DNA from: Escherichia coli
GTDB lineage: Bacteria; Pseudomonadota; Gammaproteobacteria; Enterobacterales; Enterobacteriaceae
Strand: one strand, 5' to 3'
DNA: 13,955 nucleotides
Assembly: GCF_003334765.1 (NCBI RefSeq)
Contig: NZ_QOWT01000055.1
The translations under genes were made by a program, and so were the position numbers. Numbering within the stretch: position 1 is the stretch's first letter; every line of letters starts with the position of its first letter. Below the pieces are notes generated by a model. It saw only the letters and a list, made by a program, of their open reading frames with translations. It was not told the DNA's origin and did not search any database. This document shows positions 1 to 9,357 of the stretch, piece after piece.

Positions 1-453
1 CACCGGGGACATCAGCAGGTGCTGTTTGTGGTGACGCAGGCCGACAAAACGGAGCCCTGCCATGAATGGGATATGGCAGGTATTCAGCCTTCTCCCGCAC
101 AGGAACAGAACATTCGTGAGAAAACAGATGCGGTATTCCGGCTGTTCCGGCCCGTACATCCGGTTGTGGCCGTATCGGCCCGCACCGGCTGGGAACTGGA
201 TACGCTGGTCAGTGCGCTCATGACAGCACTTCCCGACCATGCCGCCAGTCCCCTGATGACCCGCCTGCAGGACGAGCTGCGCACGGAGTCTGTCCGGTCT
301 CAGGCCCGTGAACAGTTTACCGGTGCGGTGGACCGGATATTTGACACGGCGGAGAGCGTCTGCATTGCCTCTGTTGCACGCACGGTTCTGCGCGCCGTCC
401 GTGACTCGGTGGTCTCTGTTGCCCGCGCGGTATGGAACTGGATTTTCTTCTGA
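1..453 (+). CDS. yeeP: GTPase of the YeeP/YkfA/YfjP family, C-terminal part (5' end lies outside the window)
   Basis: Frame 1 is open from base 1 to the TGA at 451-453. The translation (HRGHQQVLFVVTQADKTEPCHEWD...) matches my memory of the CP4-island small GTPases, including a TQAD G4-like motif. The position upstream of the island cargo slot is as in K-12 CP4-44. Confidence 0.85.
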   Translation, partial: HRGHQQVLFVVTQADKTEPCHEWDMAGIQPSPAQEQNIREKTDAVFRLFRPVHPVVAVSARTGWELDTLVSALMTALPDHAASPLMTRLQDELRTESVRSQAREQFTGAVDRIFDTAESVCIASVARTVLRAVRDSVVSVARAVWNWIFF

Positions 454-540
454 ACCCGGTGGTGATGTACCAGGCTGTTGTTACAGATTTTTAACTCCAT
501 GAAAACACTATGCAAACGCAGCCATACCCGGGTTGTCCCC

Positions 541-569
541 TTGCGTTGTGTTTCTCAAGTTAATAGAAT
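541..569 (+). promoter_or_regulatory. Sigma70-type promoter candidate: -35 TTGCGT (541-546), 17-bp spacer, -10 TAGAAT (564-569)
   Basis: Read directly from the sequence: 4/6 and 5/6 matches to TTGACA/TATAAT with optimal 17-bp spacing. It lies about 100 bp upstream of the ATG at 671. The predicted start site is around 576. Confidence 0.6.
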
Positions 570-571
570 AC

Positions 572-613
572 ATCGATCGTTACTATCATATCGATCGTTA
601 TAAACGATCGTTT
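572..613. promoter_or_regulatory. Cluster of three GATC-containing boxes (CGATCGTT at 574-581, 592-599, 605-612) with OxyR-like tetranucleotide periodicity; putative Dam/OxyR phase-variation operator
   Basis: GATC occurs at 575-578, 593-596 and 606-609. The 11-mer ATCGATCGTTA is repeated at 572-582 and 590-600. A perfect 12-bp palindrome AAACGATCGTTT lies at 602-613. ATCG-N7-CTAT-N7-ATCG-N7-CGAT (572-608) matches the OxyR consensus ATAG-N7-CTAT-N7-ATAG-N7-CTAT at 13/16 defined positions. Confidence 0.6.
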
Positions 614-670
614 GTAGTAAATGACCTCCTCCGTGGTTGTCATGAAAATGCGTCTTAGGAAGGTTAAATA

Positions 671-3067
671 ATGCACGAAAAGAACATCGCCCTGCTTTGT
701 GATGAAGCCGACCGACTTTTGCAACTGAACATTAATCTGCTCCGGCAAATGGTTGAGGAGCCAGATGTGTTATCTGACAGTAAGAACGAAAACAGACTGC
801 TTTTTGATAAACAGAAAGCACTGAAAAGAATTGAGGAGCTGGAGGGCGAACAAATCAAAACCGCCCGCAGGGAGATGGTGCTGGCTGTTGTCGGCACGAT
901 GAAAGCAGGCAAATCAACCACCATCAATGCCATTGTGGGGCAGGAAATTCTGCCTAACCGTAACCGCCCCATGACCTCTGTACCGACGCTCATCCGCCAC
1001 GTTCCCGGAAAAACTGAGCCGGTTCTCCATCTGGAACATATTCAGCCTGTCCGCAATTTATTAATCACACTGCAGGAAAAACTCGCCACCCCGGCAGGAC
1101 AGCAGGTCGCACAGACCCTGCAGCAAACCGGGGATACCCGCGAACTGCTGGATATTCTGACGGATGATGGCTGGCTCAAAAATGAATACCACGGGGAGGA
1201 GGAAATCTTTACCGGACTGGCATCGTTAAACGATCTGGTTCGTCTTGCTGCGGCAATGGGGACTGAATTTCCTTTTGATGAATACGCAGAAGTGCAGAAA
1301 CTGCCGGTGATCGACGTGGAATTCAGCCATCTGGTGGGGATGGATGCATGCCAGGGAACACTCACACTGCTGGATACCCCCGGCCCTAATGAGGCCGGAC
1401 AACCGCAGATGGAAGTGATGATGCGGGATCAACTGCAGAAAGCCTCTGCGGTTCTGGCTGTGATGGATTACACCCAGATGAACTCAAAAGCGGATGAAGA
1501 CGTCCGTAAAGAGCTTAATGCCATTGCTGACGTATCAGCCGGCCGCCTGTTTGTACTGGTCAATAAATTTGATGAGAAAGACCGCAATGGCGATGGGGCA
1601 GATGCCGTACGCCAGAAAGTTCCGGCAATGCTGAACAGCGATGTGCTGCCCGCCTCCCGCGTTTATCCCGGATCCTCACGCCAGGCATACCTGGCTAACC
1701 GTGCGCTTCATGAGTTACGGAAAAACGGAACCCTTCCTGTTGATGAAGCCTGGGTCGATGATTTTATCAGAGGTGCCTTCGGTTGCATGAAAAAAGAATA
1801 CGTCTGTAAAGACAGTGAACTGGCAACTGAAGGGGCGACAGACCTGTGGGAAGGCTCACTTATCGATCAACTGATAACGGAAGTCATACAGAGCTCACAT
1901 TCCAGAGCTGCGGCACTGGCGGTTGACTCTGCCGCCGCAAAACTGATGCAGAATGCAGAAAATATCAGTGAATACCTGTTGTTACGCCATCAGGGGCTAC
2001 AGCAAAGCATTCAGTCACTGCAGTCGCATATCACCAGCCTGCTTGCGGATATCCGGGAAATCGCGGACTGTCAGGAGCAGATGACCACTGATGTCAGAAT
2101 GGCCATGGAGGAGATCGATACTAAAACCCGGGAATTACTGACGGGGGTCTGCACCTCACTGGAAGAGGAGCTGAATGACTATTTCAGAAGCGGTAAACGC
2201 AAAGAACAGCAAATGCTGGAGGAAGAAGACGCAGAACAACGAAGGTCTCAGTCCGGATTATGGGGGAAAATTTCTCAATGGTCCGGTATCAACAACCAGG
2301 GCCGGGAGGATTACAGGAAACGAGATTTTGCCCCGGACAGCCCCGAAATAAAATTCAGTGATCGCAGGGAAGCCCTTGAACTGATGACGCAAATCGAATC
2401 GACCGTGACCAGCCTGCACCGTGAGGCTGAAGCACAGTTCCGGCCTGAGCTGGAGAAAATCGTCAGCGGGATTGAAACAGGTTTTCGTGGCACGGCCCTG
2501 TACGCCACAGAAAACATTGCCGGTCGCATCAATGCCCGCCTGGAGGATGAGGGCTTTACCGTAAAAATCAGTTTTCCGGCAGTCAGCCAGTTACAGACCC
2601 GGCTCGCGGTAAAAATAAATCTGAGTGCGCTTATGGAGGAAAGAACGGAGACCGTCACCCGTCGCCGTCGGCAGAGTGGCGTATGGGGAACCGTTTGTCG
2701 ATGGTTTGGCACCAGTGACCTGGGCTGGGAAAACTATGACGAGGATGTGAGTCGCAGCGTGATCAATATCAACAAGGTCAGAGAGGAAGTTATGTCACTG
2801 ACCCGGGCATATTTCGGGGAGCTGCAGGCATCCATTGAGCAGGATATTAACCAGCCCGTCCGCCAGGAAATCGATGCCTTTTTCTGCGCATTCAGGGAGA
2901 AAGTTGAACAACTGCGTAACACGCTGATTCAGAGCTCTGAGGATCATAAACGCGATCAGCAGGCGCAGGAACGACTTACCGGGCGACTTCAGGCATTAAA
3001 TGAAAGGGTTCCTGAGCTCATTACTGACAGTAAGGCGCTGAGGGAAGAGCTGGAGACAATGCTGTGA
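671..3067 (+). CDS. Bacterial dynamin-like GTPase, paralogue of CrfC/RdcA (YjdA), 798 aa
   Basis: Long ORF with an AGGAAGG Shine-Dalgarno at 656-662. G1 GTMKAGKST is at aa 75-83 (nt 893-919), G3 DTPG at aa 235-238 and G4 NKFD at aa 298-301. The N-terminal GTPase region (LAVVGTMKAGKSTTINAIVGQEILPNRNRPMT...) closely resembles E. coli CrfC as I remember it. A long helical stalk and a C-terminal coiled coil follow. Confidence 0.9.
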   Translation: MHEKNIALLCDEADRLLQLNINLLRQMVEEPDVLSDSKNENRLLFDKQKALKRIEELEGEQIKTARREMVLAVVGTMKAGKSTTINAIVGQEILPNRNRPMTSVPTLIRHVPGKTEPVLHLEHIQPVRNLLITLQEKLATPAGQQVAQTLQQTGDTRELLDILTDDGWLKNEYHGEEEIFTGLASLNDLVRLAAAMGTEFPFDEYAEVQKLPVIDVEFSHLVGMDACQGTLTLLDTPGPNEAGQPQMEVMMRDQLQKASAVLAVMDYTQMNSKADEDVRKELNAIADVSAGRLFVLVNKFDEKDRNGDGADAVRQKVPAMLNSDVLPASRVYPGSSRQAYLANRALHELRKNGTLPVDEAWVDDFIRGAFGCMKKEYVCKDSELATEGATDLWEGSLIDQLITEVIQSSHSRAAALAVDSAAAKLMQNAENISEYLLLRHQGLQQSIQSLQSHITSLLADIREIADCQEQMTTDVRMAMEEIDTKTRELLTGVCTSLEEELNDYFRSGKRKEQQMLEEEDAEQRRSQSGLWGKISQWSGINNQGREDYRKRDFAPDSPEIKFSDRREALELMTQIESTVTSLHREAEAQFRPELEKIVSGIETGFRGTALYATENIAGRINARLEDEGFTVKISFPAVSQLQTRLAVKINLSALMEERTETVTRRRRQSGVWGTVCRWFGTSDLGWENYDEDVSRSVININKVREEVMSLTRAYFGELQASIEQDINQPVRQEIDAFFCAFREKVEQLRNTLIQSSEDHKRDQQAQERLTGRLQALNERVPELITDSKALREELETML

Positions 3068-4467
3068 CTTCACCATTTATTCAACAAATTGCTGATAACC
3101 GGGTATGTCAGGTACTCACCTGTCTTCCTGAAAAATTTGTGGTTGATTTCGCAAACGGAATCGATGTTGCACAGGAGCATATCCGCACGGCCGGAGAGCG
3201 CACGTTCTTCCGGCGTTTAAAAGAGGGGCTGACCGGCGAAGGCGCTGCACGGCAGAATGCCATCAATGCGTCGCTTGCACAGGGCGTTGAGGCGTCCCTG
3301 CGCTGGCTGACGGAGATGACAACGTCACTTGCCACCACAAACTACGCGATTACCCAGGTAAACGACAGGGTCAGTTCACTGGTCAGTGATACAGCCAGGC
3401 TGGCGCATTATTCCGCAGATACGCGGGAGCAGTTACTCACCCTGGCCGATCAGGTTCACCATAAACTGAATCATCTTGAAGAAAAACTCCACCGTGTTGA
3501 CCAGGTTCAGCGGGCGCAGTTACATCTTGAGCAGATATTCTCATGGTGGAGCGCCGGGCGATATGCGTCATTTTCCCCTGCCGGACGTTGTTATGTGGCA
3601 CTTGAAGAGCTTCGCTGGGGCGCGTTTGGTGATGTGATACGTCAGGGCGAAACAGGCCAGGTTAACCAGCTACTGGATATTCTCAGACATAAAGCATTAA
3701 CGCAGATGGCACAGGAGAGTGGCGGTAGTGCAACCGTGCGTCTGAACACTCTGGACTGGCTTGGTGGTCAGGGCCGGGAGCAGGCAGATAACGAGTGGCA
3801 TGACGCGATTAACTGGCTGGGAGACTGGTGCAGTGAAGAGCAGCATCCGGTGACCCGTGTGCGCGACCCGGGCCGCCGGGGATACACAAAACACATGCTG
3901 CGTCTGCGGCGGGCCGGAGAGATAAACGGAGAACATGTCCCTGAAATTATTCTGCTCAACTCTCATGACGGTACCTCCAGCTACCAGATGCTGCCGGGTT
4001 ACTTCAGGTTCGTCTGCCAGAACGGGTGCGTCTGTGGCCAGTCTCTGGGGGAAGTGCGTGTTCCACACCGGGGAAATGTAGTGGAGAAAGTTATCGAAGG
4101 GGCTTACGAGGTGGTGGGCGTGTTTGACCGGATAGAGGAGAAGCGTGATGCCATGCAGTCGCTGGTCCTGCCGCCACCGGCACGCCAGGCGCTGGCACAG
4201 GCGGCACTGACTTACCGTTATGGTGACGAACATCAGCCCGTCACCACCGCCGACATTCTGACGCCGCGACGCCGGGAGGATTACGGTAAGGACCTGTGGA
4301 GCGCATATCAGACCATCCAGGAGAATATGCTGAAAGGCGGGATTTCCGGTCGCAGTGCAAAAGGAAAACGTATCCATACCCGGGCCATTCACAGCATTGA
4401 TACCGACATTAAGCTCAATCGCGCATTGTGGGTGATGGCAGAAACGATGCTGGAGAGCCTGCGCTGA
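3064..4467 (+). CDS. Chimeric ORF: RdcB/YjcZ-like dynamin-partner domain (aa 1-263) fused in frame to the C-terminal ~204 aa of a DUF932 protein (YfjQ/YafZ family)
   Basis: The GTG start overlaps the upstream stop as GTGA (3064-3067), implying translational coupling. From nt ~3853 (TRVRDPGRRGYTKHMLRLRRAGE...WVMAETMLESLR) the translation matches the YfjQ/YafZ family from about residue 70 to the end, as I recall it. The N-terminal part is coiled-coil rich (RQNAINASL..., YSADTREQL...) like the YjcZ partner encoded next to crfC. Confidence 0.8.
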   Translation: MTSPFIQQIADNRVCQVLTCLPEKFVVDFANGIDVAQEHIRTAGERTFFRRLKEGLTGEGAARQNAINASLAQGVEASLRWLTEMTTSLATTNYAITQVNDRVSSLVSDTARLAHYSADTREQLLTLADQVHHKLNHLEEKLHRVDQVQRAQLHLEQIFSWWSAGRYASFSPAGRCYVALEELRWGAFGDVIRQGETGQVNQLLDILRHKALTQMAQESGGSATVRLNTLDWLGGQGREQADNEWHDAINWLGDWCSEEQHPVTRVRDPGRRGYTKHMLRLRRAGEINGEHVPEIILLNSHDGTSSYQMLPGYFRFVCQNGCVCGQSLGEVRVPHRGNVVEKVIEGAYEVVGVFDRIEEKRDAMQSLVLPPPARQALAQAALTYRYGDEHQPVTTADILTPRRREDYGKDLWSAYQTIQENMLKGGISGRSAKGKRIHTRAIHSIDTDIKLNRALWVMAETMLESLR

Positions 4468-5043: not shown

Positions 5044-5520
5044 ATGCAACAACTTTCCTTTCTGCCCGGAGAGATGACGCCCGGCGAGCGCAGCCTCATT
5101 CAACGGGCCCTGAAAACCCTGGACCGCCATCTTCATGAACCCGGCGTGGCCTTCACCTCCACCCGTGCAGCACGGGAATGGCTGATTCTGAACATGGCGG
5201 GACTGGAGCGTGAAGAATTCCGGGTGCTGTATCTGAATAACCAGAATCAACTGATTGCCGGTGAAACCCTCTTTACCGGCACCATCAACCGCACGGAAGT
5301 CCATCCCCGGGAAGTGATTAAACGCGCCCTGTACCACAATGCCGCTGCCGTGGTACTGGCACACAATCACCCGTCCGGTGAAGTCACACCCAGTAAGGCA
5401 GACCGGCTTATCACCGAACGTCTGGTACAGGCACTGGGCCTGGTGGATATCCGGGTGCCGGACCATCTGATAGTCGGTGGCAACCAGGTTTTCTCCTTTG
5501 CCGAACATGGTCTGCTTTAA
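5044..5520 (+). CDS. yeeS: RadC-like JAB/MPN domain protein (YeeS/YkfG/YfjY family)
   Basis: JAMM-type motif HNHPSGEVTPSKAD. GGAGG at 5031-5035 lies 8 nt before the ATG at 5044 (MQQLSFLPGE..., the N-terminus I remember for this family). The ORF track's earlier ATG at 5029 is an alternative start. Confidence 0.9.
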   Translation: MQQLSFLPGEMTPGERSLIQRALKTLDRHLHEPGVAFTSTRAAREWLILNMAGLEREEFRVLYLNNQNQLIAGETLFTGTINRTEVHPREVIKRALYHNAAAVVLAHNHPSGEVTPSKADRLITERLVQALGLVDIRVPDHLIVGGNQVFSFAEHGLL

Positions 5521-5582
5521 CCCGTCACAACCACATCACACCTGTTTTCACTTTTATCTTCTGTCTTCAGAGGTATCCCATT

Positions 5583-5804
5583 ATGAAAATTATCACCCGT
5601 GGTGAAGCCATGCGTATTCACCAACAACATCCGACATCCCGTCTTTTTCCGTTCTGTACCGGTAAATACCGCTGGCACGGCAGTGCTGAAGCGTATACCG
5701 GTCGTGAAGTGCAGGATATTCCCGGTGTGCTGGCCGTGTTTGCTGAACGCCGTAAGGACAGTTTTGGTCCGTATGTCCGGCTGATGAGCGTCACCCTGAA
5801 CTGA
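5583..5804 (+). CDS. yeeT: DUF987 protein YeeT
   Basis: The 73-aa ORF (MKIITRGEAMRIHQQHPTSRLFPFCTGKYRWHG...) matches K-12 YeeT/YkfH family length and sequence from memory. Its position is conserved. Confidence 0.9.
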   Translation: MKIITRGEAMRIHQQHPTSRLFPFCTGKYRWHGSAEAYTGREVQDIPGVLAVFAERRKDSFGPYVRLMSVTLN

Positions 5805-5877
5805 GTGGGAATTCTGATGAGCAGAATTATCGCCACTACCGGACCATTCTTAGCCGATTTTCTGTAAGGATTTTATC

Positions 5878-6246
5878 GTGTCAGACACACTCCCCGGGAC
5901 AACACTTCCCGACGACAATCACGACCGCCCCTGGTGGGGGCTGCCCTGCACCGTGACGCCCTGTTTCGGGGCACGTCTGGTGCAGGAGGGTAACCGGTTG
6001 CATTACCTTGCCGACCGCGCCGGTATCAGAGGCCTGTTCAGCGATGCAGATGCGTACCACCTGGACCAGGCCTTTCCGCTGCTGATGAAACAACTGGAAC
6101 TCGTGCTCACCAGCGGTGAACTGAATCCCCGCCATCAGCATACCGTCACGCTGTATGCAAAAGGGCTGACCTGCAAAGCCGATACCCTCAGCAGTTGTGG
6201 TTACGTTTATCTGGCTGTTTATCCGACGCCCGAAATGAAAAATTAA
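5878..6246 (+). CDS. cbeA: Type IV antitoxin CbeA (YeeU)
   Basis: 122 aa with a GTG start and an AAGGA Shine-Dalgarno at 5866-5870. The sequence is near-identical to K-12 CbeA as recalled (SDTLPGTTLPDDNHDRPWWGLPCTVTPCFGARLVQEGNRLHYLADRAG...). Confidence 0.95.
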   Translation: MSDTLPGTTLPDDNHDRPWWGLPCTVTPCFGARLVQEGNRLHYLADRAGIRGLFSDADAYHLDQAFPLLMKQLELVLTSGELNPRHQHTVTLYAKGLTCKADTLSSCGYVYLAVYPTPEMKN

Positions 6247-6334
6247 CTCTCCAGAATAGCCTTCTGCTACGGCCTGGTGTTTTCACCACGCCACTTTTCC
6301 ATTTTTATATCTGCATATCAGGAAAATCTTCAGT

Positions 6335-6709
6335 ATGAAAACATTACCTGTATTACCCGGGCAGGCGACCAGTTCTCGCCCGTCTCCTGTTGAAATCTGG
6401 CAGATACTGCTGTCCCGACTGCTGGACCAGCACTATGGCCTCACACTGAATGACACACCTTTTGCCGATGAACGTGTGATTGAGCAGCATATTGAGGCAG
6501 GCATTTCACTGTGTGATGCGGTGAACTTTCTCGTGGAAAAATACGCGCTGGTGCGTACCGACCAGCCGGGATTCAGCGCCTGTACCCGCTCTCAGTTAAT
6601 AAACAGCATCGATATCCTCCGGGCTCGCAGGGCGACCGGCCTGATGACCCGCGACAATTACAGAACGGTAAATAACATTACCCTGGGTAAGTATCCGGAG
6701 GCGAAATGA
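6335..6709 (+). CDS. cbtA: Type IV toxin CbtA (YeeV), inhibitor of FtsZ/MreB polymerisation
   Basis: 124 aa (MKTLPVLPGQATSSRPSPVEIWQILLSRLLDQHYGLTLNDTPF...), near-identical to K-12 CbtA as recalled. It lies immediately downstream of cbeA. Confidence 0.95.
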   Translation: MKTLPVLPGQATSSRPSPVEIWQILLSRLLDQHYGLTLNDTPFADERVIEQHIEAGISLCDAVNFLVEKYALVRTDQPGFSACTRSQLINSIDILRARRATGLMTRDNYRTVNNITLGKYPEAK

Positions 6710-6900
6710 TGACACTGGAAGCCGACAGCGTTAACGTACAGGCGCTGGATATGGGGCACATTGTCGTTGACATTGATGGTGTTAATATCACTGAACTGAT
6801 TAATAAGGCCGCTGAAAAAGGTTATTCACTCCGCGTGGTGGATGACCGTGACTCTACCGAAACACCGGCAACTTATGCCAGCCCTCACCAGTTGCTGTAA
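6706..6900 (+). CDS. yeeW: YeeW-family small protein
   Basis: 64-aa ORF whose start overlaps the cbtA stop as ATGA (6706-6709). It matches K-12 YeeW/YpjJ family length and position. Confidence 0.8.
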   Translation: MMTLEADSVNVQALDMGHIVVDIDGVNITELINKAAEKGYSLRVVDDRDSTETPATYASPHQLL

Positions 6901-7055
6901 GACAATGCAGTGATGCAGGGTATAGTGCCATTAACCACAGAAACAGCACTGTTGTCCTGTATTAAGCAGGCAAGAGAAGATGTCCTTACCCTGCGCCATC
7001 TGCAGCTTCTGCACCAGAACCGGTGAATCTCACTCAACAGGCTTCATTTCCCCTG

Positions 7056-7085
7056 ACGCCAGCCTGAATACAGCTGGCGTTTTCA
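7056..7085 (+). terminator. Rho-independent terminator candidate
   Basis: Perfect 8-bp stem ACGCCAGC (7056-7063) / GCTGGCGT (7073-7080) with a 9-nt loop, followed by TTTCATTT. Confidence 0.6.
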
Positions 7086-7184
7086 TTTATAAACAGAAAG
7101 GAAAACCGATAATAATGGAATGGACGCCCCGACCATGAAGCAACGGTAGGATATTACTGATAAACCTTCCAGTGGAGGTGCGTT

Positions 7185-7265
7185 ATGGCCGTTTTAACGA
7201 TTAGCATTGACCTGACAAAAAATGAATTCCAAATCCACGGTCTGGGTAGGAACAGAAAAATCTAA
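7185..7265 (+). mobile_element. N-terminal remnant (26 codons) of an IS110/IS1111-family (DEDD) transposase
   Basis: GGAGG at 7174-7178, then MAVLTISIDLTKNEFQIHGLGRNRKI*. The I(G/S)IDL(G/T)KN.F.IH pattern is the typical N-terminus of IS110/IS1111 transposases. The ORF stops after 26 codons. Confidence 0.55.
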
Positions 7266-7314
7266 GCTCAGAAAACGGATTAAAGTAAGCGTCAACGGAG
7301 CACCGTATTGACGC

Positions 7315-7450
7315 TTATTTATTGGTGAGAACTACGTTCCATGGCAGGAGTTCGTCAACACGGTTGGAGGGCCATTCCGGCAGTATGCTCAGAATATGGC
7401 GCAGATACGCTTCCGGATCGATACCGTTCAGACGGCAGGTGCCTGCTTTT
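7315..7450 (-). mobile_element. C-terminal remnant of an IS66-family transposase
   Basis: The minus-strand translation ...GTCRLNGIDPEAYLRHILSILPEWPSNRVDELLPWNVVLTNK* ends at the TAA at 7317-7315. This is the characteristic C-terminus of IS66-family TnpC proteins. The upstream boundary is approximate. Confidence 0.7.
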
Positions 7451-7469
7451 CCGGCAACAAGCAGGAATC

Positions 7470-7697
7470 TCAGCGCTGAAGCAGGAATTAGAGGTAAAAA
7501 CGCCCTACCGGGCCATGAATCACCCGGTCATTGGAGTAGTAACCAAAGCAGATTTAGCCAGCATGGAACAAATATCTTTGGTGAAAAGTTGGTTACGGGA
7601 AGCTGGAGCGCACAACGTGTTAGTAACCAGTGCAGTTAATAACAATGGAGTTACAGAACTTTTTGCCTTGCTGCATACAGAAGAAGGCTGTTGTTAA
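7470..7697 (+). pseudogene. yoeF: C-terminal fragment of a EutP/PduV-family GTPase (yoeF-like pseudogene)
   Basis: The translation ...YRAMNHPVIGVVTKADLASMEQISLVKSWLREAGAHNVLVTSAVNNNGVTELFALL... resembles the C-terminal half of PduV/EutP. No P-loop N-terminus is present. The upstream part of the 118-aa ORF is antisense to the IS66 remnant. The start coordinate is approximate. Confidence 0.65.
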
Positions 7698-7755
7698 TTT
7701 CGATTGGTTCTCAGATGAGAATGATGACGGTGATACACAGATAAGAATCAATGAG

Positions 7756-7784
7756 CAATGAGGGTTGCCGGGCAACCCTCATTG
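7756..7784. terminator. Perfect 14-bp inverted repeat between convergent yoeF-like fragment and yeeX; probable bidirectional terminator/stem-loop
   Basis: CAATGAGGGTTGCC (7756-7769) and GGCAACCCTCATTG (7771-7784) are exact reverse complements. The repeat lies 14 nt downstream of the yeeX stop. No strong U-tract on either strand. Confidence 0.5.
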
Positions 7785-7797
7785 AATAAAACGGGAA

Positions 7798-8127
7798 TTA
7801 CTTCGCTTCGCCGTTTTTCATTTCGCCCATAGCTTTCAGCTTTTTGGAGATATCGCGGCGTTCTTTGGAGAGCTCGGCATTTTTGATGATGTAATCGTCA
7901 ACGCGATCTTCATAGTCACCTTTCATGCTGGCGATGATGCCCTGGATTGCTTCAACGCTCATCCCTGGCTTGATGTAATCGCTCAGGTTGTCCAGCAACA
8001 GGACGCGCTTCTGGTTGTCACGGATCTTTTTCTCAACGTCCTGAATTTCACGTTGCAGTTTGTTCTTACGACGGAACAGACGAACAAATTCCAGTACGTC
8101 CTGGAATGAAGGCTTGGTAGTTTCCAT
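7798..8127 (-). CDS. yeeX: UPF0265/DUF496 protein YeeX
   Basis: The translation [39 protein letters not shown]... (109 aa) matches K-12 YeeX. The ORF track's 131-aa version starts at an upstream ATG (8193) that I consider less likely. Confidence 0.9.
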
Positions 8128-8298
8128 TTTTATACCCCTGATAATGTGAGAGTCGGATTCGTTTAAGCAACCGCTATTCGTTAGGGCCAACATTACTCAT
8201 AGCTGCCGCAGATGACAATGCTTTTATCCCTTTTCACTATCATACCCTTTATCCTTGCTGAATCGAAGCAGCAGCAAGATGATTCTGAAGTTCAGGAA

Positions 8299-9357
8299 TT
8301 ATTTGCGCAAGGCCCGGCAAATCAGATTCGATAGCAACTCAAGCTGATGTGCCGTTTCCATGTTCAGCCACACATAACCATAGATTGGTGTTTCCACAAC
8401 CTTCAGGTCATGGTGGTTATTCAGCAACTGACGCAGCTCTTCCACAGCATCGTTCAATTTTTCCGTATTGGCAAAAACCGGCTGCGGATTACCTTCGTAC
8501 AGCGCATGAACAAGGCTCAGCAGTATTTGCTGCATCATATGCTGGGTATCACGAAGTTTTTGCGCGTTCAATAACACGAAATGGCTGGGGCGCGTGGCCC
8601 AGTATGCATTGATTTGCAACTCCAGCATACAAACCAGATTGCGATTAATGGTCTGGATACCTTCATATATCGATTTTGGAATACGGGTTTCTTTGCTGGC
8701 GGGCGCAATCAGCCCACGCATTTTCACGGCATCGGTCAGGAGTTTTTGTAGATGGCTTTCCAGACGCGGGCGTTCGAGTAAGTTCGGTGAGAATGCAGAT
8801 TGATAGACCCGATTATACTCGGTCAGACTTTTTGCCAGTTGAATGCGCCAGTGGATGAACGCCCGTTGTGGCCAGATACCGGTAAACAACATTGCCAGTA
8901 AAGAGCCGAGGATCACATCGCCGCTTCGCCATAACGCCGTATTAATTTCACCTGTCGGGGAACCAACAACAATTGCCAGCGTCACCCCAATCAATAAACC
9001 TTGATACGGTTTCTTGCCCAGCGCCAGCCAACCGCAAAGAAACATAGCCGCCGCGCACCAGACTAACATCAGCGGTAACGAGATTAACTCCAGTTGCAGA
9101 GCGATAAGACCTAAAATCGACCCCAACACCGTACCGCCAATACGTTCGAATGCGCGAGGGACAACGTTCCCCCAGAACGAGATTGGCCCCATAATCACCA
9201 CCATGGTGACCAGCGGCCAGGTGCTTTCCGGGATAGTAAACAGGCGGATAATGAGAAAAGTGAGCAGGAATGCCAGCGCGACCCGAGTACCATGCACAAT
9301 GCGGTAATGGCGGTATACCCGGATTTCAAACGGGCTTAATGACTTATCGGCACGCAC
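8299..9357 (-). CDS. yeeA: FUSC-family inner membrane protein YeeA
   Basis: 352-aa ORF (MRADKSLSPFEIRVYRHYRIVHGTRVALAFLLTF...). Length and sequence match K-12 YeeA as recalled. It has multiple hydrophobic segments in the N-terminal half. Confidence 0.92.
   Translation of the reverse strand: MRADKSLSPFEIRVYRHYRIVHGTRVALAFLLTFLIIRLFTIPESTWPLVTMVVIMGPISFWGNVVPRAFERIGGTVLGSILGLIALQLELISLPLMLVWCAAAMFLCGWLALGKKPYQGLLIGVTLAIVVGSPTGEINTALWRSGDVILGSLLAMLFTGIWPQRAFIHWRIQLAKSLTEYNRVYQSAFSPNLLERPRLESHLQKLLTDAVKMRGLIAPASKETRIPKSIYEGIQTINRNLVCMLELQINAYWATRPSHFVLLNAQKLRDTQHMMQQILLSLVHALYEGNPQPVFANTEKLNDAVEELRQLLNNHHDLKVVETPIYGYVWLNMETAHQLELLSNLICRALRK

Follow-up and report, generated by a model that had tools for sequence, protein, structure and literature searches.

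What controls the dynamin-like GTPase operon that occupies, in an Escherichia coli island, the place of the K-12 autotransporter gene flu (agn43)? In E. coli, phase variation by Dam and OxyR is textbook knowledge for one gene family, Ag43. The DNA analysed is a stretch of 13,955 bp (the window). Positions 5068-8766 are 99.5% identical to the K-12 region yeeS...tmaR-yeeA, so that the window is located at the CP4-44 site, and positions 7-456 are about 96% identical to K-12 yeeP. K-12 carries yeeP-isrC-flu in the corresponding slot; an earlier note made from the sequence had placed flu there, directly after yeeP. The features needed below are as follows.

19..453, plus strand: 3' part of a yeeP-like GTPase gene, 96.4% identical to the K-12 yeeP pseudogene.
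541..546, plus strand: candidate -35 hexamer TTGCGT, matching TTGACA in 3 of 6 positions, invariant in 13 dynamin-type alleles.
564..569, plus strand: candidate -10 hexamer TAGAAT, inside the conserved TAATAGAAT.
572..608, plus strand: predicted OxyR operator ATCG-N7-CTAT-N7-ATCG-N7-CGAT, overlapping all three GATC sites.
575..578, plus strand: GATC-I, with G575 as the predicted transcription start.
592..610, plus strand: inverted repeat CGATCGTT-ATA-AACGATCG followed by TTTGT, a terminator-like match.
593..596, plus strand: GATC-II, invariant in all alleles and in all aligned flu/cah-type switches.
606..609, plus strand: GATC-III, at the centre of the palindrome AAACGATCGTTT, invariant.
619..670, plus strand: dynamin-specific part of the leader, near-invariant among dynamin-type alleles.
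657-663, plus strand: Shine-Dalgarno box AGGAAGG, within the dynamin-specific leader.
671..3067, plus strand: gene of a 798-aa dynamin-like GTPase (Pfam Dynamin_N, CrfC model), a paralogue of CrfC/YjdA/RdcA.
3064..4467, plus strand: chimeric ORF, RdcB/YjcZ-like residues 1-263 in frame with DUF932 residues 70-273.

The candidate promoter TTGCGT-17-TAGAAT (541-569) has a 17-bp spacer. K-12 flu, O157 cah, Citrobacter and all dynamin-type alleles have the same -10 hexamer, within the conserved TAATAGAAT. The -35 hexamer is the same as in O157 cah, whereas K-12 flu has TTGTCC at the aligned position. A sigma-70 consensus scan did not include this promoter among its matches. The promoter is credible because it is homologous to that of agn43, with the same -10 region, and not because of consensus strength. 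The hexamers, coordinates and spacer given in the earlier note were correct, but its description of the promoter as near-consensus does not hold, as the -35 hexamer has only half of the consensus positions and the scan missed it.

The octamer CGATCGTT encloses each of the three GATC sites, at 574, 592 and 605, and is found nowhere else in the window. The 11-mer ATCGATCGTTA is found at 572 and 590, 18 bp apart, and AAACGATCGTTT (602-613) is a perfect 12-bp palindrome. The window contains 23 GATC sites, compared to approximately 54 expected from base composition; the three sites considered here span 31 bp start to start, and the next tightest triplet spans 193 bp. The OxyR grid ATAG-N7-CTAT-N7-ATAG-N7-CTAT is matched at 13 of 16 positions in 572-608, where the tetranucleotides read ATCG/CTAT/ATCG/CGAT. 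No other site in the 13,955 bp has more than 11 matches, and with the extended Toledano motif this one scores 16/20. In the same scan the experimentally bound operator of K-12 flu has lower scores, 11/16 and 14/20. The three sites with their octamer, the spaced 11-mer, the palindrome and the grid score had all been noticed earlier and were confirmed.

In K-12, the isrC RNA (the flu leader) is annotated from the G of GATC-I (L001 position 2318), which is also the published agn43 start site. The equivalent position in the window is G575, and a start there would give a leader of about 96 nt.

The window was aligned to the K-12 yeeP-flu region, as had been proposed. Identity extends to just beyond the stop codon of yeeP, is then lost, and is back over the promoter-operator core, where window CTCAAGTTAATAGAATACATCGATCGTTA-CTATCATATCGATCGTTATAAACGATCG is aligned with K-12 CTCAA--TAATAGAATAAAACGATCAATATCTATTTTATCGATCGTTTATATCGATCG. 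The aligned stretch is longer in the O157 cah regulatory region, from the -35 hexamer through TTTGTAGT at 618. In local alignments of window 509-626, tested with 2000 shuffles, the score reached z = 13.8 for the K-12 yeeP-flu spacer and z = 17.6 for the O157 GTPase-cah spacer. The window and flu/cah have in common TAATAGAAT, CTAT and three sites of the form (C)GATC(G). By these alignments the promoter-operator region 541-618 is almost certainly a true homologue of the agn43-family switch. The earlier note had seen an agn43-type architecture in front of a dynamin-like operon, which agrees with the alignments to flu/cah (from -35 to about +45) and with the Dynamin_N domain encoded downstream. 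It had left open base-for-base identity with the K-12 flu operator, and the operators are not identical.

These alignments also bear on the trivial explanation, a chance cluster of GATC sites having no regulatory meaning. The bare pattern can indeed arise randomly. Besides the dynamin-type region in E. albertii, a version in two Citrobacter species and flu-type versions in Shigella, E. ruysiae and E. coli, a pattern scan of one genome per species (596 Gb) retrieved 19 matches, all in GC-rich genomes, that are unrelated: they share the pattern and nothing else and were discarded as chance. In the window, however, some 80 bp are aligned with two independently known agn43-family regions, and the element is in the same island slot. 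Homology effectively refutes this explanation, and its probability is negligible.

The likeness to agn43 (flu) and cah is detailed. In both cases the element is in the island slot directly after a yeeP-like GTPase gene; three GATC sites, each within CGATC(G), begin at the predicted +1, and CTAT separates GATC-I from GATC-II; neither the register CTAT-N7-ATCG-N7-CGAT nor the -10 to GATC-I distance differs; and there is one operator, a predicted one in the case of the window, downstream of the promoter. There are also differences. The core is only about 75-80% identical to that of K-12. The distance from GATC-I to GATC-II is 18 bp here and 19 bp in all flu/cah-type switches, Citrobacter included, GATC-I being 1 bp nearer to CTAT; this could alter OxyR affinity or switching rates. 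The leader is shorter (about 96 nt, compared to 222 nt of isrC in K-12 flu). Finally, the cargo of agn43/cah is an autotransporter, whereas here it is a dynamin-like operon: no autotransporter gene was found in the window, and the ORF downstream of the switch encodes the Dynamin_N protein.

Other switches of this kind are the Salmonella gtr and opvAB systems, which form heritable ON and OFF lineages via OxyR half-sites containing GATC and control envelope traits relevant to phage resistance (PMC2909390; PMC4856963). They have four GATC sites, arranged as two pairs, and their OxyR sites, which lie upstream of the promoter, are alternatives for activation and for repression. By architecture, the element in the window differs from them and is similar to agn43, with one predicted repressor-type operator downstream of the start.

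In agn43, OxyR represses from one site, methylation of the GATC sites abolishes binding, and a dam mutant is locked OFF. Cells are locked ON by dam overexpression (PMC2909390) and by oxyR deletion (PMC3764049). Work cited in PMC2909390 is quoted there to the effect that the oxidation state of OxyR does not control agn43 phase variation. By analogy, the sigma-70 promoter TTGCGT-17-TAGAAT would produce a transcript from the G of the first GATC, and one OxyR operator, at about +1 to +35, would hold all three GATC sites. OxyR, reduced or oxidised, would bind the unmethylated operator 572-608, block RNA polymerase at or just after +1 and shield the GATC sites from Dam, creating a heritable OFF state. 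When Dam wins after replication, the methylated sites would exclude OxyR and the promoter would fire, creating a heritable ON state. The leader of about 96 nt would join the switch directly to the operon, so that in intact loci the dynamin module would be expressed in a sub-population only.

It is quite probable that 541-618 is an allele of the agn43/cah-family Dam/OxyR switch that drives the dynamin operon, and, on the agn43 model, nearly as probable that it confers phase variation on this operon. The anatomy, homology, distribution, conservation pattern and gene content of the locus were observed directly; OxyR binding, differential methylation, the start site and bistability are what we infer for it. 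The literature, including methylome papers on ST131 and O111, yielded no site-level methylation data for the three GATC sites.

The earlier note had ascribed the arrangement to this strain. It is in fact widespread. Of 5426 complete E. coli genomes, 1986 have the 217-bp intergenic region, nearly all with at least 95% identity; among the carriers are ST131, O157:H7, NU14, the CFT073 lineage and MP1. E. albertii has it too. Since about one E. coli genome in three has the arrangement, probably only a sub-population of cells expresses this entire membrane-GTPase operon. The gene order GTPase, switch, dynamin, RdcB-like gene, patatin-like phospholipase is the same in all 18 dynamin-type loci examined. 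The upstream gene, which precedes the switch in all related islands, is annotated in related loci as "GTPase family protein". Among homologues of the dynamin, the best 120 matches all have at least 93% identity. Distant blastn searches of E. coli genomes with the switch did not reach the flu-type switches, the core being too short for the E-value limit.

An alignment of ten sequences with an invariant -10 hexamer and invariant GATC sites was rejected as evidence of conservation, since it is partly circular: seven of the ten rows had been found by a pattern containing those elements. It was replaced by a pattern-independent test. The 18 loci, collected with the entire spacer as BLAST query or via the protein, and independently of the motif, represent 13 alleles. 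There are 16 variable positions in 541-625, and none of them falls in the 28 positions of the -35 and -10 hexamers, the three GATC sites and CTAT (hypergeometric P = 7.4e-4). For the GATC bases by themselves (12 positions) P = 0.067, which is not significant, and the overall divergence of the alleles is low (about 97% identity).

This test bears on the possibility that the region is an evolutionary left-over: a promoter-operator homologous to agn43 that now serves as an ordinary promoter, constitutive or simply repressed by OxyR. The 1-bp shorter spacing between GATC-I and CTAT, or the new leader, would then have ended bistability. The 18-bp distance between GATC-I and GATC-II, found in none of the flu, cah and Citrobacter versions, fits this scenario, as do a leader unrelated to those of flu/cah past about +45 and the frequent decay of the operon (a frameshift in CFT073, IS insertions in PSUO2 and 720632, the deletion in the window). 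However, the polymorphisms avoid every predicted functional element, the version with 18 bp matches the OxyR grid better than that of K-12 (13 versus 11 of 16), the arrangement has been kept in E. albertii, and MP1 shows large, all-or-none-like expression differences in exactly this transcription unit. We consider a left-over unlikely. Bistable Dam/OxyR expression, which we infer, is strengthened by the conservation of the alleles and by the MP1 data.

These data come from an RNA-seq comparison of a Kapi1 lysogen of E. coli MP1 with a non-lysogen stock, two colonies of each in two media (PMC12922286). The cluster SID94_19700-19720 was the most strongly up-regulated in the lysogen in both media (PMC12922286). 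It consists of exactly the dynamin, RdcB-like and patatin genes and two hypothetical genes, and includes neither the upstream GTPase gene nor the downstream DUF932 gene. The spacer preceding it is 95% identical to window 454-670 and retains all three GATC sites. A large, medium-independent difference confined to the unit that starts at the switch fits a comparison of ON and OFF clones. In work on agn43, the choice of colonies that differ in phase is documented to imitate regulation and to produce false regulators (PMC3764049). According to the authors of the MP1 study, the expression change does not go along with the lytic-lysogenic decision, and no regulation of dynamins of this type had been described before (PMC12922286).

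The same data could reflect control in trans, either by a product of the prophage, as the MP1 authors proposed, or by oxidative stress via OxyR, and not stochastic heritable switching. The up-regulation in Kapi1 lysogens in both media is in line with this, and a paralogous operon on PAI-aspV was reported as up-regulated too, although the authors flag multi-mapping of reads for it (PMC12922286). If the PAI-aspV signal is real, a trans-acting cause is more likely than independent stochastic switching; for instance, the prophage might supply additional Dam-like activity that acts through the same switch. Such a prophage-encoded methylase, pushing the switch ON, would make a hybrid of control in trans and phase variation. 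On the other hand, the lack of correlation with the lytic-lysogenic decision, the multi-mapping and the use of only two colonies per strain stock (PMC12922286) argue against control in trans, as does the fact that the same design gave false regulators for agn43 (PMC3764049). Control by oxidative stress is further at odds with the independence of agn43 phase variation from the OxyR oxidation state, as quoted in PMC2909390. Overall, control in trans seems improbable, even more so than a left-over, and phase variation by Dam and OxyR is the preferred explanation.

The dynamin-like protein matches Pfam PF00350 (Dynamin_N) with 66.9 bits (cut-off 27). The NCBIfam CrfC model NF007368 is aligned over residues 1-797, with 556 bits. 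As this full-length match is below the equivalog cut-off of 1146 bits, the protein is a paralogue of CrfC/YjdA/RdcA and not an equivalog; identity is about 30% (PMC12922286). The exact 798-aa protein is common in E. coli. Intact loci encode the dynamin, an RdcB-like protein, a patatin-like phospholipase and two small proteins. The earlier note was right about the dynamin-like GTPase, but the ORF that it took for a partner is a chimera created by a private deletion, as seen from its Pfam domains, YjcZ (192 bits) and DUF932, and from BLASTP against the intact genes of strain 50579417 (L002). Relative to that strain, 2854 bp are deleted, with the junction at 3852/3853, and the patatin-like phospholipase gene and the two small genes have been removed. 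The junction is found in none of the 5426 complete E. coli genomes. Since this private deletion cripples the operon, the switch in the window probably drives just the dynamin and the chimeric protein.

Compared to the K-12 pair RdcA (YjdA/CrfC)-RdcB (YjcZ), the cargo genes are full-length paralogues, but they are island-borne, with a patatin-like phospholipase downstream and the GATC switch upstream. K-12 RdcA and RdcB activate the diguanylate cyclase DgcE (PMC6510439; PMC13463826). The dynamin-like anti-phage system Eleos (LeoA/LeoBC) resembles the locus in that dynamin-family GTPases are located on mobile islands beside other defence genes (PMC12922286). The locus in the window differs from Eleos in having only a marginal PADLOC match to LeoBC (19.8 bits, residues 29-89) and no LeoA partner. 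The RdcB-like and patatin genes do not match the Eleos models, and in PADLOC the dynamin, the RdcB-like protein, the patatin-like phospholipase and the two small proteins fit no defence model beyond marginal matches.

Decay has been observed at several related loci. The dynamin gene is frameshifted in CFT073 (L047 4012-6409) and truncated by an IS in PSUO2 (L033). The yeeP-like GTPase genes of MP1 (L037 17572-18445), PSUO2 and ST131 are frameshifted or truncated. In E. coli 720632 (L035 1781-2937), one IS600 has inserted about 36 bp in front of the -35 hexamer, separating the switch from the GTPase gene, and a second copy of IS600 breaks the dynamin gene.

A search of the literature on dynamin in combination with OxyR, Dam, GATC, phase variation or Ag43 returned no Dam/OxyR-controlled or phase-variable dynamin operon, in agreement with the earlier note, which knew of none. 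This kind of switch is already well known; its cargo and its prevalence are the new elements.

The switch is followed directly by the dynamin operon in 1986 of the 5426 genomes, by an Ag43/Cah gene and then the dynamin operon in another 635, and by an ORF of 154 aa in Citrobacter. It looks like a module of this island family that does not depend on its cargo. In the 635 genomes, the Ag43/Cah gene is separated by 110 bp from the same dynamin-RdcB-patatin operon. No promoter-like or terminator-like signal was found in this spacer (L046 4582-4693, O157 AR-0427), and the operon there may therefore be co-transcribed from the phase switch of the autotransporter itself. In Citrobacter amalonaticus (L009 4897-5501) and C. 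braakii (L024), a flu-type switch with three GATC sites follows the same GTPase gene and precedes the 154-aa ORF, which has no Pfam match, then more uncharacterised ORFs and then DUF932. This arrangement suggests a switch with exchangeable cargo.

The O157:H7 strain TR01 (L003 8288-8331) has a window-type dynamin leader downstream of cah in place of the usual O157 spacer. We considered TR01, with the order GTPase-switch-cah-dynamin, as the ancestor of the window arrangement by simple deletion of cah. This was rejected, as the TR01 junction is unique to that genome, the common O157 cah-dynamin spacer carries a leader different from the window type, and window 619-670 resembles neither that spacer nor the flu/cah leaders significantly. 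TR01 looks like a one-off recombinant of two kinds of dynamin locus.

Taken jointly, these observations can be read as a portable epigenetic module of CP4-44-type islands, with the dynamin module bet-hedged in much of the species and the "prophage-induced" expression in MP1 being a clonal phase difference; we regard this joint reading as evenly poised between right and wrong. If it is true, the switch moves about as a unit whose cargo can be exchanged, and in more than a third of E. coli genomes, ST131, O157 and commensals included, Dam and OxyR provide bet-hedging for a module with a putative role in membrane remodelling, phage defence or c-di-GMP signalling. This would be a second widespread class of epigenetically bistable trait, cytoplasmic or membrane-associated and not a surface adhesin. 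Bulk transcriptomes and mutant comparisons of these genes would then be prone to the same colony-choice artefact as for agn43, MP1 being a candidate case. Strains locked ON (oxyR or GATC mutants) or locked OFF (dam) would provide a handle on the function of the module, for which phage defence, membrane repair and c-di-GMP signalling are candidates.

In a urinary-catheter E. coli proteome, WP_000544720.1, a "dynamin family protein", is one of the proteins that differ in abundance, and its entry is near that of the phase-variable PapH (PMC13252197). Some protein with that annotation is therefore made.

The leader is unrelated to the flu/cah leaders beyond about 618-626 (about +45). Its part 619-670 has no significant similarity to those leaders or to the common O157 cah-dynamin spacer, and an Rfam scan of the whole window returned no family, an isrC-like leader included. 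The minimum-free-energy fold of 575-690 contains the hairpin 592-610, formed by the GATC-II/III region and followed by UUUGU. The fold is not significantly more stable than those of shuffled sequences (z = -1.7). The segment CCTCCTCC (also given as CCUCCUCC) at 625-632 can base-pair with the Shine-Dalgarno box AGGAAGG, to which it is complementary, and does so in the predicted fold. Such pairing could mask translation initiation, and together with the GATC-II/III hairpin it could modulate the output of the switch.
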